Assembly: GCA_041562995.1 (NCBI GenBank) | Contig: JBFFNX010000001.1 | Span: 1-45,171 of the forward strand | Direction: 5' to 3' | DNA length: 45,171 bases | From: Desulfurivibrionaceae bacterium | Lineage (GTDB): Bacteria > Desulfobacterota > Desulfobulbia > Desulfobulbales > SURF-16 | Shown: positions 2,505 through 45,171 of the stretch, in pieces | How the letters are laid out: the number at the start of each line of letters is the position of its first letter | How positions within the stretch are numbered: position 1 is the first letter of the stretch | Program-made: the position numbers and the translations under genes | Notes under the pieces: generated by a model | Seen by the model: the letters and a program-made list of their open reading frames with translations, nothing else | What the model was told of the DNA's origin: nothing | The model's database searches: none

Positions 2505-3611
2505 ATGATTATCGGTGTACCAAAGGAAATCAAAGAAAAGGAATTTCGGGTCGGCATTGTCCCGGCTGGCGTCAAGGCCCTGACTGAAGCGGGCCACTCT
2601 GTACTTATCGAAGCAAATGCCGGGGAAGGCAGTGGTATTACTGATCCTGAATACGCTGCTGCCGGTGCCACCCTTGTCTCTTCTCCCGACGATGTCTATG
2701 GCCAGGCAGATCTTGTTATGAAGGTCAAGGAACCCCTGGGCGAGGAGTTGTCCCTCCTCCGGCCAAAACAAATCCTCTTCACCTATCTTCACCTGGCCCC
2801 AGCGCCGGATCTCACCGACAGCCTTCTCAAAAGTAAGATTCGGGCCGTTGCGTATGAAACCGTCCAGCTCGACAACGGTTTTCTGCCCCTGCTCTCCCCC
2901 ATGAGCCAGGTGGCTGGCCGCATGGCCATTCAGGAAGGGGCTCGTTTCTTGGAAAAGGAGGAAGGCGGGCGCGGCCTATTGCTGGCCGGGGTTCCCGGCG
3001 TTGCACCTGGCCATGTCACCATCCTCGGCAGCGGCACCGTGGCCAGCAATGCCGCCCAAATAGCCATCGGCCTTGGGGCCCAAACCACCATCCTCGGTCG
3101 TAACCTGCAAAGGCTGGCCGAACTTGACGCCCTTTTCCAGGGCCGCCTCACCACCCTCGCCCTTAACCAGCATACCATCGAACAGGAGCTCAAAAAAGCT
3201 GATCTGCTGGTGAGCGCCATCTACGTCCCAGGAGGCCGCGCCCCAAAACTGGTGAGCCGTGCCATGCTCAGCCTGATGAAAAAGGGCTCGGTCATTGTCG
3301 ATGTTGCCATCGACCAGGGCGGCTGTATCGAAACATCCAAGCCCACCTATCATTCTGACCCGGTCTTTAAGGTGGATGGCATTCTGCATTATTGCGTGGC
3401 CAATATGCCGGGCGCAGTGCCCTGGACCTCGACCTTTGCCCTGACCAATACCACCCTGCCCTATTGCCTGGCCATGGCCAGCAAGGGCCTTGAAACAGCA
3501 GCCAGGGATGATATCGCCCTCTATCGAGGCATCAACCTCTTTGACGGCCTGCTTGTCAACCGTCAGGTCGCCGAATCTCAGGACAAACCCTGGCAGGAGT
3601 TAACACTCTAA
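2505..3611 (+). CDS. ald: alanine dehydrogenase
   Basis: The N-terminus MIIGVPKEIKEKEFRVGIVPAGVKAL and full-length colinearity match the Ald family. GGAG at 2495-2498 lies 6 nt before the ATG at 2505; the track start at 2502 is GTG. Confidence 0.9.
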   Translation: MIIGVPKEIKEKEFRVGIVPAGVKALTEAGHSVLIEANAGEGSGITDPEYAAAGATLVSSPDDVYGQADLVMKVKEPLGEELSLLRPKQILFTYLHLAPAPDLTDSLLKSKIRAVAYETVQLDNGFLPLLSPMSQVAGRMAIQEGARFLEKEEGGRGLLLAGVPGVAPGHVTILGSGTVASNAAQIAIGLGAQTTILGRNLQRLAELDALFQGRLTTLALNQHTIEQELKKADLLVSAIYVPGGRAPKLVSRAMLSLMKKGSVIVDVAIDQGGCIETSKPTYHSDPVFKVDGILHYCVANMPGAVPWTSTFALTNTTLPYCLAMASKGLETAARDDIALYRGINLFDGLLVNRQVAESQDKPWQELTL

Positions 3612-3627
3612 TCCATAACACAAAATA

Positions 3628-3639
3628 GTTATCGATAAC
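3628..3639. promoter_or_regulatory. perfect 12-bp palindrome GTTATCGATAAC, candidate Fur-family (PerR-like) operator upstream of the Sec-peroxiredoxin gene
   Basis: Palindrome read directly from the sequence. It is embedded in AAATAGTTATCGATAACCATTAC, which shares AAATAGT...TTAC with the reverse complement of the palindrome upstream of the Fur-family gene at 12396-12407. Confidence 0.4.
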
Positions 3640-3818
3640 CATTACCACGCAAAGACAGAGGACCAATTGCAAGGGGTATACATCTACCACCACAGGAGGA
3701 CTTTATGGCAAAAGAAGGCATCACCGGCTGTGCCAGACCTACCGGCGGCCTCGTCGGTGAAGAAAATGAATCCACCCAAGAACAAACAGCTTCCCGCGAA
3801 CCAAAGGAGACGAGAAAA

Positions 3819-4427
3819 ATGTTAATGGTCGGACAAAAGGTGCCTGATTTCACGGCCCCCGCATATCACAATAACGAATTCACCAATGTCCAACTTTCAG
3901 ATCACCTGGGCAAATGGGTTCTCCTTTGCTTCTACCCGGGCGATTTCACCTTTGTCTGAGCCACTGAAATTTCAGCGGTCGCTGAAAAATATGCTGAGTT
4001 CCAGAAGCTCGGCGTTGATGTTCTTTCCATGAGTATCGACAGCATGTTTGTTCATAAGATGTGGAATGATGATGAGTTGAGCAAGATGGTGGAAGGTGGC
4101 ATACCCTACCCCATGCTCTCTGATGCGGGCGGCAAGGTCGGCACGGCCTATGGCGTCTATGATCCGGATGCCGGCGTGGAGACCAGGGGCCGTTTCATCA
4201 TTGACCCTGATGGCGTTCTCCAGGGCTATGAGGTTCTCACCCCGCCGGTTGGCCGTAATGTCAACGAGACCCTGCGCCAAGTCCAGGCCTTTCAGCTCGT
4301 CCGCGAGACCAAGGGCGGTGAGGCCACTCCTTCCGGCTGGACGCCCGGCAAGCCGACCCTGAAACCTGGCATCAATCTGGTCGGTAAGGTCTGGCAGGAA
4401 TGGAAGACCAAGCAGGCCTTTGAATAG
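3819..4427 (+). CDS. selenocysteine-containing peroxiredoxin (AhpC/Prx1 family); in-frame UGA at 3957-3959 read as Sec
   Basis: Track ORFs 3705..3959 and 4029..4427 share a frame and are separated only by this TGA. The TGA replaces the peroxidatic Cys: FYPGDFTFV-[TGA]-ATE versus canonical FYPxDFTFVCPTE. Homology continues through the stop ([27 protein letters not shown]...). GGAG at 3806-3809 lies 9 nt before the ATG at 3819. A SECIS-like hairpin lies downstream. Confidence 0.85.
3970..3987 (+). promoter_or_regulatory. SECIS-like hairpin (7-bp stem UUUCAGC/GCUGAAA, GGUC tetraloop) starting 11 nt after the UGA
   Basis: Read directly: tttcagc-ggtc-gctgaaa. The spacing and the G/U-containing apical loop resemble the bacterial fdhF-type SECIS. 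The hairpin after the fdhA UGA in this window (44584-44602) has a comparable GGUCU loop. Confidence 0.6.
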
Positions 4428-4548
4428 GACTGCTGTGCTGGGCCGGTATCTCCTCCTGCGGCCCTTCTGAGATGCGCCATTATTTCTGGTCAGACCAGGT
4501 GTAATGGCGTATTGTTTTTTACGGATCATAACACAGAGGAACAACGAC

Positions 4549-4908
4549 ATGAAAAGCCCTAGTCCCAAAACCGTCCTCTTTGCCTTCCGTGACGACCCCA
4601 TGTGCTTTATCCACGTCCTCCTCAATGGCATTGATCTCCATGACCGGGGCAGGGAAGGGAAGATTGTCATCGAGGGCGAAGCGGTCAAGCTGATCGCCGC
4701 CATCGCCCAGGACAGCCATGCCCTGAACACCCTCTATAAAAAAGCCAAAGGCCTTGGCCTTATTGCCGCCGTCTGCCTGGGTTGCGCCACCAAACTCGGG
4801 GCCTTGGAAGCTGCCAAGGCCGAGGGCCTGCCCCTGGTGGGCGACATGAGCGGCCATCCCAGCATGGGAAGCTATATTGACGAGGGCTACGTGGTCATCA
4901 CCTTTTAA
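4549..4908 (+). CDS. DsrE/DsrF-like family small sulfur-relay-type protein
   Basis: 119 aa counted from the ATG at 4549, which is preceded by GAGGA. The pattern KTVLFAFRDDPMCF...LIAAVCLGCATKLG...GYVVITF resembles the DsrE/DsrF/DrsH-like fold. It lies 121 nt downstream of the Sec-Prx gene on the same strand. Confidence 0.55.
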   Translation: MKSPSPKTVLFAFRDDPMCFIHVLLNGIDLHDRGREGKIVIEGEAVKLIAAIAQDSHALNTLYKKAKGLGLIAAVCLGCATKLGALEAAKAEGLPLVGDMSGHPSMGSYIDEGYVVITF

Positions 4909-12421: not shown

Positions 12422-12874
12422 ATGAAGCATCCCACCCAACATGATCTGTCGGTTATGGTAGCGGAATTTGAAAACGCCTGCCGCAAGGCCGACCTCAAGG
12501 TCACCCACCAGCGCCTGGAAATCTATCGGGAACTGGCAGAGGCCCTTGATCACCCTTCGGCAGAGATGCTTTATAAACGGATTATCAAACGGCTACCCAC
12601 CATCTCCCTTGACACCGTGTATCGCACCTTGGCAACTCTTGAAAAACATGGCCTGATTACTCGGGTTCAGACTCTGGAAAACCAGGCCCGTTTTGAAGCG
12701 GAAATGGTCAGACATCATCACGCCGTCTGCAGCAAATGCGGAACAATCACTGATTTCAGCTGGAATACCTTTGATGAGGTTCCAGCCCCTGCAGAGCTGA
12801 GCGGCTGGGGAAGAATCATCAAGAGAAATGCCATTCTTGAGGGAATCTGTAACGACTGCACCAAGGGAAATTAA
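12422..12874 (+). CDS. perR: Fur-family transcriptional regulator, probably peroxide-responsive (PerR-like)
   Basis: 150 aa. Winged-helix region (HQRLEIYRELA...HPSAEMLYKRI...ISLDTVYRTLATLEKHGLI). HHHAVCSKCG...CNDC metal sites. It lies directly upstream of katG and rbr. The PerR rather than Fur/Zur assignment rests on context only. Confidence 0.75.
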   Translation: MKHPTQHDLSVMVAEFENACRKADLKVTHQRLEIYRELAEALDHPSAEMLYKRIIKRLPTISLDTVYRTLATLEKHGLITRVQTLENQARFEAEMVRHHHAVCSKCGTITDFSWNTFDEVPAPAELSGWGRIIKRNAILEGICNDCTKGN

Positions 12875-12978: not shown

Positions 12979-15231
<2,253 letters not shown>

Positions 15232-15585: not shown

Positions 15586-16161
15586 ATGCCCGCATTAAAA
15601 GGAACCCAGACCGAAAAGAACATCCTCACCGCCTTTGCCGGTGAATCCCAGGCCCGTAACCGCTACACCTTTTTTGCCTCTAAGGCCAAGAAGGAAGGGT
15701 ATGTGCAGATCTCCGACATTTTCACTGAAACAGCCGATCAGGAAAAGGAGCATGCCAAGCGCCTCTTTAAACTGCTGGAAGGTGGCGAAGTCGAGATCTC
15801 CGGCACCTTCCCGGCCGGGGTCATCGGCACCACCAGCGAAAACCTGGCCGAGGCTGCTGCCGGTGAAAACCACGAGCACCTGGTGATGTATCCTGGCTTT
15901 GCCGAGACGGCGCGCGCCGAGGGTTTCGACGATATCGCCGCCATCTTCATGGCCATTGCCGTGGCCGAAAAACAGCATGAGAAACGCTATGTGGAACTCA
16001 AGGCCAACGTCGACACGCGCCAGGTCTTCCATCGTGACGCAAAAATGACTTGGCGTTGCCGCAACTGCGGGTATGTGCACACCGCCCATGGCGCTCCGGA
16101 CGTCTGCCCGGCCTGTGATCATGCCAAGGACCATTTCGAGCTTTTGGCGGAAAACTGGTAA
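15586..16161 (+). CDS. rbr: rubrerythrin
   Basis: N-terminal ferritin-like diiron domain (LKGTQTEKNILTAFAGESQARNRY...EKEHAKRL...) and C-terminal rubredoxin-like CRNCG...CPAC. Confidence 0.95.
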   Translation: MPALKGTQTEKNILTAFAGESQARNRYTFFASKAKKEGYVQISDIFTETADQEKEHAKRLFKLLEGGEVEISGTFPAGVIGTTSENLAEAAAGENHEHLVMYPGFAETARAEGFDDIAAIFMAIAVAEKQHEKRYVELKANVDTRQVFHRDAKMTWRCRNCGYVHTAHGAPDVCPACDHAKDHFELLAENW

Positions 16162-16346: not shown

Positions 16347-16790
16347 ATGAACACCTCCCTCCACCTTGTCTGTCCAGCCTGTGCAACCAAAAACCGTATC
16401 CCGCAAGCCCGTTTAACCGATGGCCCCAAATGCGGCAAATGCGCCCAGCCCCTTTTCTCCGGCGCCCCTATTAATCTGACAAGCGCCCTTTTCCCGCGCC
16501 ACATCAGCGGCAATGACATCCCTGTCCTCGTCGATTTCTGGGCGCCCTGGTGCGGGCCCTGTAAAATGATGGCCCCGGCCTTTCACCAGGCCGCCAGCCT
16601 CCTTGAACCCCATATCCGCTTGGCCAAGGTCAATACCGAAGCGGAACAGATCCTGGCCGGCCAATTCACCATCCAGTCCATTCCCACCATGGTTCTCTTT
16701 CATCATGGCAAAGAGATTACCAGACAGCCTGGAGCCATGACCACTGATCAGATTGTCCACTGGGCCCGGCAGCATGGCCAAGGATCGTGA
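16347..16790 (+). CDS. trxC: thioredoxin 2 (TrxC-type, with N-terminal zinc-finger extension)
   Basis: N-terminal CPAC...CGKC zinc-finger motif followed by the WAPWCGPCK active site. Confidence 0.9.
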   Translation: MNTSLHLVCPACATKNRIPQARLTDGPKCGKCAQPLFSGAPINLTSALFPRHISGNDIPVLVDFWAPWCGPCKMMAPAFHQAASLLEPHIRLAKVNTEAEQILAGQFTIQSIPTMVLFHHGKEITRQPGAMTTDQIVHWARQHGQGS

Positions 16791-44170: not shown

Positions 44171-45171
44171 ATGCCTGACATTTTGACCACGTGTGTCTAT
44201 TGCGGCTGCGGCTGCGGGGTGTACCTCCATGAACAAAATGGCCGGGTCGTTGGCTCCACCGCCAGCCGCAACCACCCGGTTTCCCGCAACAACCTGTGCG
44301 TCAAGGGTTGGCACCTGCATGAATTTATCCACCATCCGGACCGCCTCACCGAACCGCTGATCAGGAAAAACGGCGTGCTTACCCCGGCGAGCTGGGACGA
44401 GGCCCTGGACTATACGGCCACAGAACTTGGCCGCATCCGCGATAAAACCGGAGGCGAGGGCATCGGCGTGCTCTCCTCGGCCAAATGCACCAACGAAGAA
44501 AACTTCCTGCTCCAAAAATTCACCCGGGCGGTGCTGAAGACCAACAATATCGACCATTGCGCCCGCCTCTGACACGCTCCCACGGTGGCAGGTCTTGCCT
44601 CCACATTCGGCAGCGGCGCCATGACCAACTCGATCAATGAGATTGAAAATGCCCAGGTTATCCTGGTCACCGGCTCAAACACCACCGAGGCCCATCCCCA
44701 GGTGGCCCGAAGGATGCTGGATGCCGTTGATCGCGGCGCCAAACTGATCGTCATTGATCCCAGAAAAACTCTTTTGGCCGAATTCGCCGACATCCATCTC
44801 GCCATCAGGCCGGGCACCGACATCCCCCTGCTCAACGCCATGATGCGCATCATTCTGGACGAGAACCTGGTTGACGACCTCTTTGTGGAGATGCGCACCG
44901 AAAACTACCACAAGCTGCGCGACATGCTCTACCGCCTGGATCTCGTGGAGGTAGCCAAGATCACCGGCGTGGATCTGGAAAGCATCAACAAGGCGGCCCA
45001 GCTCTATGCCCAGGCCCAAAAAGCGGTTATCTGTTATTGCCTGGGCATCACCCAGCATATCTGCGGCACCAGAAACGTCCAGGCCCTGGCCAATTTGGCG
45101 ATGATGACCGGCCACATCGAAAAAGAAGATACCGGGGTTGACCCCCTGCGCGGCCAGAACAATGTCCAGGG
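44171..45171 (+). CDS. fdhA: formate dehydrogenase alpha subunit, selenocysteine-containing (UGA at 44570-44572), 3'-truncated by the window edge
   Basis: N-terminal 4Fe-4S motif TCVYCGCGCG...C. NIDHCARL-[TGA]-HAPTVAGL compares with the fdhF-type DNCARVUHGPSV. The molybdopterin-oxidoreductase sequence continues in frame to the window end. No Tat signal, so it is probably cytoplasmic. Confidence 0.9.
44584..44602 (+). promoter_or_regulatory. fdhF-type SECIS hairpin (GGUGGCA-GGUCU-UGCCUCC with one U-U mismatch) starting 12 nt after the UGA
   Basis: Read directly. It closely parallels the E. coli fdhF SECIS apical stem-loop GGUUGCA-GGUCU-GCACC. Confidence 0.7.

Follow-up and report, generated by a model that had tools for sequence, protein, structure and literature searches.

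A probable PrxU-type selenocysteine peroxiredoxin, with a conserved N-terminal cysteine motif, in a Desulfurivibrionaceae genome

Analysis of the first 45,171 nucleotides (nt) of contig JBFFNX010000001.1 from a Desulfurivibrionaceae bacterium (assembly GCA_041562995.1), the whole of which is called the window here, revealed an open reading frame (ORF) at 3705-4427 of the forward strand, prxU, with 240 codons including that of a selenocysteine (Sec) at position 85 and a TAG stop at 4425-4427. Its product is very likely an orthologue of PrxU, a Sec-containing, thioredoxin-dependent peroxiredoxin (Prx) of the AhpC/Prx1 subfamily (probability about 0.88, a figure that refers to the identity of the protein and to the recoding of its in-frame TGA, and not to which Cys resolves the oxidized enzyme). 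Sec-peroxiredoxins have been known since 2001, and the window gene belongs to a catalogued selenoprotein family, of which it is an unremarkable member; the find is thus a re-discovery. PrxU has its own NCBIfam equivalog and is present in hundreds of anaerobe genomes; the more interesting features of the gene, namely an N-terminal Cys motif, a Cys ten residues before the peroxidatic position (-10) and an internal start, belong to the family as a whole and are not specific to the window.

A previous interpretation of this DNA made from its letters (the sequence-only reading) had proposed a Sec-peroxiredoxin of the PrxU type, encoded by an AhpC/Prx1 frame with a single TGA. The frame is as described: translated over 3819-4427 it is of the AhpC/Prx type, and the TGA at 3957-3959 is its only interruption. 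With Sec (U) written as Cys, a Pfam scan returned AhpC-TSA (7e-39), together with Redoxin and 1-cysPrx_C. The assignment to PrxU is borne out by the NCBIfam equivalog NF040737 ('peroxi_PrxU', annotated as thioredoxin-dependent peroxiredoxin, 233 profile positions, cutoff 270 bits), which scored 414.2 bits over profile positions 2-232 when translation starts at ATG 3705, and 391.7 bits over positions 35-232 when it starts at ATG 3819. The AhpC profile TIGR03137 reached 195 bits, under its cutoff of 272, and the Prx6-type models NF009669, NF009668 and NF009670 reached 98-127 bits, under cutoffs of 211-374 (127 bits against 261 for NF009669), which places the protein outside the Prx6 group. The closest PDB structures by sequence are all Prx1/AhpC enzymes, matched over residues 40-229 with E-values of 1e-48 to 1e-41. 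For the fold, a Cys-form homologue with 70% identity (P0012) was modeled with AlphaFold2 (AF2) in place of the Sec-containing window protein, giving a predicted TM-score of 0.83 and a predicted local distance difference test (pLDDT) score above 90 for most of the Prx domain.

A scan with one genome per species counted relatives of prxU in at least 591 genomes. The best 80 of these loci were examined and the active-site motif was recognised in 76, which together with the window make up the DNA comparison set (n=77); the protein comparison set consists of the 120-121 best database homologues. Full-length homologues are mostly 237-240 amino acids (aa) long with 100% query coverage, and the tblastn matches span residues 1-240 at most of the 80 loci. 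The best matches of the window protein, with 75-90% identity, come from Desulfocapsa and from Desulfobulbaceae metagenome-assembled genomes. The PrxU of Eubacterium (Peptoclostridium) acidaminophilum and the NF040737 family share with the window protein the AhpC/Prx1 fold, Sec in the motif PxxxTxxU followed by ATE, the lack of the canonical C-terminal resolving Cys and a SECIS hairpin immediately 3' of the UGA. They agree in every defining feature; the window comes from a probable Desulfobulbales genome. The peroxiredoxin described in the C. sticklandii genome paper has the same architecture, with Sec84 of 240 aa against Sec85 of 240 here (PMC3091704), and Prx (TxxU) is treated as a selenoprotein family with experimental verification in reviews of the prokaryotic selenoproteome, which cite Söhling et al. 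2001 (PMC13188914, PMC9312934). The Prx-like UxxC/UxxU selenoproteins and the Prx6-type 1-Cys peroxiredoxins belong to the same thioredoxin-fold superfamily, some of them with Sec and some without a resolving Cys; the Prx-like selenoproteins carry a thioredoxin-like UxxC motif (PMC1088965), and the window PrxU has TxxU.

The position of the TGA is the one expected for a catalytic Sec. It aligns with the column of the peroxidatic Cys, as the sequence-only reading had claimed, and it is found at this codon in 76/76 related loci with the motif. The active site of the window protein reads PGDFTFV-U-ATE, with UATE instead of CPTE; the replacement of the Pro by Ala, also noted before, is a family trait (Ala after U in 113/121 members). 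A check for orthologues that end at this TGA with no frame behind it gave the opposite picture, since in the loci compared the frame continues and is conserved, with at least 68% identity 3' of the TGA among the listed loci and a complete Prx domain. Elsewhere in the window TGA is a normal stop codon, and indeed the commonest one, ending 15 of the 29 family-matched genes at their expected length.

A hairpin of the bacterial Sec insertion sequence (SECIS) type follows the codon. Its 7-bp stem and GGUC loop, 10 nt after the TGA, had been pointed out in the sequence-only reading; the stem is part of the minimum-free-energy fold, covaries among the homologues and was recovered identically and independently by RNAalifold. 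Folding of the single sequence is not significant (z = -1.57), and the evidence comes from the alignment of 76 homologous sequences, where 98.8% of the cells are paired against 88.1% in column shuffles (0/500 shuffles reach 98.8%) and at most 68.5% when the register is slid. The alignment holds 84 double-change cells. The peptide S-A-V-A-E dictates four of the seven stem pairs, which leaves the wobble positions as the informative ones; these covary, with compensatory changes at three wobble-position pairs, all synonymous sites. Thus, pair 18-27 is found as GC in 35 sequences, AU in 32, UA in 3, CG in 1 and GU in 2, and unpaired in none; pair 15-30 as UA in 53, CG in 14 and AU in 5; and the loop-closing pair 21/24 as GC in 45, AU in 27 and GU in 1, with G22 and U23 constant throughout. 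The full set of 8 pairs is kept in 70/76 Sec loci and, in a small control, in only 1/4 distinct Cys-form loci. Just past the SECIS stem, within the coding region, a second hairpin of 10 bp (AUGCUGAGUU...AGCUCGGCGU, 3991-4015, + strand) was flagged by the terminator scan.

A second UGA of the same kind is found at the other end of the window, where the 5' part of fdhA contains a UGA (44570-44572) at the canonical Sec position of this gene (NIDHCARL-U-HAPTVAGL). The hairpin that follows it carries GGUC in its apical part at nt 22-25 (nt 21-24 in prxU), counting from the U of UGA, in line with the earlier remark that both elements agree in spacing and loop type. The constancy of TGA in the related loci, the covariation of the hairpin, its degradation in the Cys-forms, the fdhA UGA and the use of TGA as a stop in the rest of the window together argue that the TGA at 3957-3959 is recoded. 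Weighing on the other side, selA, selB, selC and selD are all absent from the 45-kb window, in which the tRNA scan also returned none, and an Rfam scan of the whole window gave 0 matches, with no bacterial SECIS at the gathering threshold, a result that is hence uninformative. From the fdhA UGA alone we infer that the genome would carry the Sec machinery; SelB and Sec-tRNA would then insert Sec85, and prxU would in turn mark this genome as Sec-decoding.

The beginning of the protein differs from that of the sequence-only reading, which had taken ATG 3819 as the start. The frame is conserved 114 nt (38 residues) further upstream and is open in 77/77 sequences, and a Shine-Dalgarno (SD)-like match precedes the first Met in 73/77. 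Since the NF040737 profile covers the extra 38 residues, the full-length homologues mostly measure 237-240 aa and the upstream frame is always open, the ORF very probably starts at ATG 3705. The part of the former proposal that may stand is a short product beginning at ATG 3819, as a second isoform, because the SD and ATG found at this internal site (3804-3821) are conserved.

This internal site was inspected at the level of the codons. An SD-like match lies before the internal start codon in 75/77 sequences, the commonest spacer being 8 nt, and SD and ATG are found at the same position in loci L001-L080, L086 and L089; in two loci of only 29-33% GC the site keeps AAGGAGG. Within the seven codons before the internal start, Glu is encoded by GAG and GAA in a ratio of 85:29, against 456:672 elsewhere in the same genes (Fisher p = 3.5e-12), and Lys by AAG and AAA in a ratio of 82:43, against 596:661 elsewhere (p = 1e-4), p-values that ignore the relatedness of the sequences. 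Codon bias and SD conservation point to selection at the nucleotide level that maintains an internal ribosome-binding site. This suggests dual initiation, in which a ~22 kDa isoform of 202 aa, devoid of the N-terminal tail, would be made beside the ~26 kDa form of 240 aa.

The extension itself carries the motif G-C-A-R-P-T-G-G-x-V-G-E (residues 8-19), whose amino acids do not change from one phylum to another. Its Cys9 is found in 105/105 proteins that have the extension and in 77/77 DNA sequences, and Arg11 and Pro12 also in 77/77. The codons of the motif vary freely at synonymous sites, Arg using all six of its codons, and selection therefore acts here on the peptide and not on the RNA. In the AF2 model of P0012, pLDDT falls from about 60 over residues 1-20 to below 50 over residues 19-36, and the linker that joins motif and Prx domain (residues 20-38) is probably disordered.

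At the opposite end of the protein, the segment GEATPSGW aligns with GEVCPAGW of 4fh8 and EVCPAGW of 5zte, with Thr208 in the place of the resolving Cys. The absence of this canonical Cys, which had been noticed before, holds family-wide (T 106, A 12 and C 2 in this column). In sequence and fold the protein is a Prx1/AhpC enzyme, and it lacks the resolving Cys in GEVCP, contributed by the partner subunit, by which a typical 2-Cys peroxiredoxin is recognised. With the typical 2-Cys enzymes (4fh8, 5zte, 1qmv and the S. typhimurium AhpC 1yep) it shares the motif PxxxTxxC/U and the C-terminal segment GE..P.GW; it differs from them by Sec in the place of the peroxidatic Cys, by Thr208 and by a Cys at the -10 position, where typical Prx1/AhpC enzymes have Phe. 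The 38-residue extension with Cys9 has no counterpart in the listed PDB matches, none of which begins before query residue 34. The Cys at -10, Cys75, is conserved in 119/120 homologues and is placed inside a central beta-strand (residues 71-76) of the AF2 model. The Cys-form relatives of the PrxU clade have exactly three Cys, corresponding to Cys9, Cys75 and the peroxidatic Cys. In the literature searched, no description was found of the N-terminal extension, of a Cys at the peroxidatic -10 position or of the internal start.

Given these residues, a mechanism can be proposed in which the Sec85 selenolate would reduce H2O2 or an organic hydroperoxide and be converted to a selenenic acid (Sec-SeOH), one of the invariant Cys would attack the selenenic acid to form a selenenylsulfide, and thioredoxin would reduce the latter and regenerate the enzyme. 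Cys9, at the end of its tether, is the favoured resolving thiol over Cys75, at somewhat less than even odds: it appears where the C-terminal resolving arm has been lost, the disordered linker would be long enough to swing, and there is precedent for Sec enzymes with a resolving Cys of their own. The nearest analogy is mammalian MsrB1 (SelR), where a catalytic Sec and a Cys on a flexible N-terminal segment, Cys4, form a selenenylsulfide that is reduced by thioredoxin; its fold and reaction are unrelated to those of PrxU, the likeness is a working analogy and not one of homology, and a Cys9-Sec85 bond in PrxU is hypothetical. Sec enzymes that need their own resolving Cys have been discussed (PMC1278935). 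Should the tail Cys prove to be the resolving thiol, PrxU would stand as a mechanistic subclass new among the peroxiredoxins and would offer a simple bacterial model of the way in which Sec enzymes gain resolving thiols of their own.

Several observations tell against Cys9 in this role. The conserved internal start implies an isoform in which the tail is missing, and the PrxU of E. acidaminophilum is reportedly a protein of 203 aa and 22 kDa, which corresponds to the short form and not to the 240-aa ORF. Conservation of the N-terminal motif exceeds what a simple resolving Cys needs, which suggests another or an additional role for it. The relatives P0123 and P0127 have neither the tail nor the canonical resolving Cys and keep a Cys at the peroxidatic -10 position, a pattern that favours Cys75 or a true 1-Cys mechanism.

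A broader proposal takes both isoforms into account. On the long form Cys9 would be the swinging resolving or electron-shuttling thiol for Sec85, the short form would have no arm and would be reduced directly or through Cys75, and the two might co-assemble in the Prx oligomer. Such a two-isoform, tethered-thiol system, which would hold for the whole PrxU family, is not known to have been described as such and is rather doubtful.

Among the alternatives to a resolving Cys9, the one that survives best is that of the sequence-only reading, a one-selenol peroxiredoxin in which an external dithiol, thioredoxin for instance, would reduce Sec-SeOH directly, with no Cys of the protein involved. Thiols readily reduce selenenic acids, as a matter of general selenoenzyme chemistry (PMC8533274), the canonical resolving Cys is missing throughout the family, and the conserved internal SD and ATG would yield just such a tail-less protein. 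Against it, two further Cys are invariant across hundreds of sequences and are the very ones that the Cys-forms keep together with the peroxidatic Cys, and the N-terminal motif is under clear purifying selection at the protein level. The proposal moreover was built on a start 114 nt too far downstream, and it had overlooked the Cys at position 37 of the short form (Cys75 in the full numbering), which lies inside the segment it described. A mechanistic 1-Cys peroxiredoxin has no conserved second Cys, and with Cys9 and Cys75 invariant and exactly three Cys in the Cys-forms, the claim of one selenol with no partner thiol holds as regards the absent C-terminal Cys and is not established as regards the partner. 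A cycle with two residues, Sec and Cys, is at least as likely as the one-selenol cycle, which is here considered unlikely though a serious contender.

The second alternative gives the resolving role to Cys75 and leaves the tail for partner docking, regulation or protection of the Sec. Its conservation in nearly all homologues, its retention in P0123 and P0127 and its presence in the long and the short isoform alike speak for it; its place in a central beta-strand, where it would probably be buried and immobile, speaks against. To our knowledge, no peroxiredoxin class uses the peroxidatic -10 position for the resolving Cys, which also lowers the standing of this alternative, and a resolving Cys75 appears rather improbable.

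The remaining alternatives concern the TGA and not the Cys. That it is a true stop, by way of a pseudogene, a sequencing error or a split gene, might be suspected from its being the usual stop codon of the window and from the gene callers, which on long contigs cut prxU into pieces of ~83 and ~122 aa, but a TGA at the same codon in loci of many lineages, with a conserved frame, a complete Prx domain and a covarying hairpin 3' of it, makes this negligible. Equally negligible is a TGA read as Trp or Gly under another genetic code, to which the entries of the public protein catalogues would lead (W in 104/120, G in 1/120 and C in 14/120 of the best database homologues at this column): the W and G entries are TGA translated under codes 4 or 25, the loci behind the W entries give TGA under table 11, the column is otherwise that of the catalytic Cys, and over half of the family-matched window genes stop at TGA at the expected length. 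The public predicted-protein collections thus contain a systematic mis-annotation of PrxU, in which Trp or Gly mostly stands in place of Sec, or the two fragments in place of the protein. For annotation, the value of the present case lies in calling prxU as one ORF of 240 codons with Sec85.

Table 1. Positions in the window of the elements of prxU (3705-4427, + strand) and of other genes mentioned in the text.
Feature	Position	Strand	Remarks
Shine-Dalgarno AGGAGG, 5 nt before ATG 3705	3694-3699	+	Read from the sequence
N-terminal motif G-C-A-R-P-T-G-G-x-V-G-E (G8-C9...19)	3726-3761	+	Cys9 codon TGT 3729-3731
Variable acidic/Lys-rich linker, residues 20-38	3762-3818	+	Sequence and length differ between loci
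Internal in-frame Shine-Dalgarno AAGGAG, 9 nt before ATG 3819	3804-3809	+	Conserved
Internal ATG (Met39), candidate start of the 202-aa short isoform	3819-3821	+	ATG 73/77, GTG 2, ATT 1, GTT 1
Cys75 codon TGC, peroxidatic -10, LLCFYPGD	3927-3929	+	End of strand beta-3; C in 119/120 homologues
UGA codon for Sec85, peroxidatic residue in PxxxTxxU	3957-3959	+	TGA in 76/76 related loci with the motif
Bacterial SECIS hairpin, 7-bp stem UUUCAGC/GCUGAAA, apical GGUC	3970-3987	+	Fold and covariation
GEATPSGW, canonical C-terminal resolving-Cys site	4317-4340	+	Thr208 (4326-4328); alignment to solved 2-Cys Prx
PerR-like regulator	12422-12874	+	
Catalase-peroxidase KatG	13018-15231	+	
Rubrerythrin	15586-16161	+	
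TrxC-type thioredoxin	16347-16790	+	
5' part of fdhA, runs off the window end	44171-45171	+	CVYCGCGCG..., NIDHCARL-*-HAPTVAGL and GQNNVQ in translation

The surroundings of prxU fit a role in peroxide defence in an anaerobe. A cluster of genes for a PerR-like regulator, KatG, rubrerythrin and a TrxC-type thioredoxin is located 8-12 kb from prxU (Table 1), the thioredoxin being a candidate reductant of PrxU. In other loci the recurrent neighbours are genes for catalase, KatG, rubrerythrin, Fur/PerR, flavodiiron protein and glutaredoxin; no fixed partner gene stands beside prxU in the related loci compared, where synteny is not conserved and only oxidative-stress genes recur. In low-GC relatives a divergent gene lies upstream of prxU, which encodes a glutaredoxin in L086-L088 (1784-2047 in L086) and a FUR-family regulator in L089 (2395-2814); these divergent genes hint at lineage-specific reductants and control of the PerR type.

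Upstream of prxU, a putative sigma-70-like promoter is formed by TTAACA (3600-3605) and AATAGT (3624-3629), and a perfect 12-bp palindrome, GTTATCGATAAC, at 3628-3639 overlaps the putative -10 element. A PerR/Fur operator was considered for the palindrome and rejected, since neither katG nor rbr nor perR has a copy of it and other loci do not keep it ahead of prxU. Directly 3' of prxU, the ORF at 4504-4908 (+ strand), with a likely start at ATG 4549, gave no Pfam or NCBIfam match; relatives of it are found beside prxU in 4/80 related loci, or five with the window.

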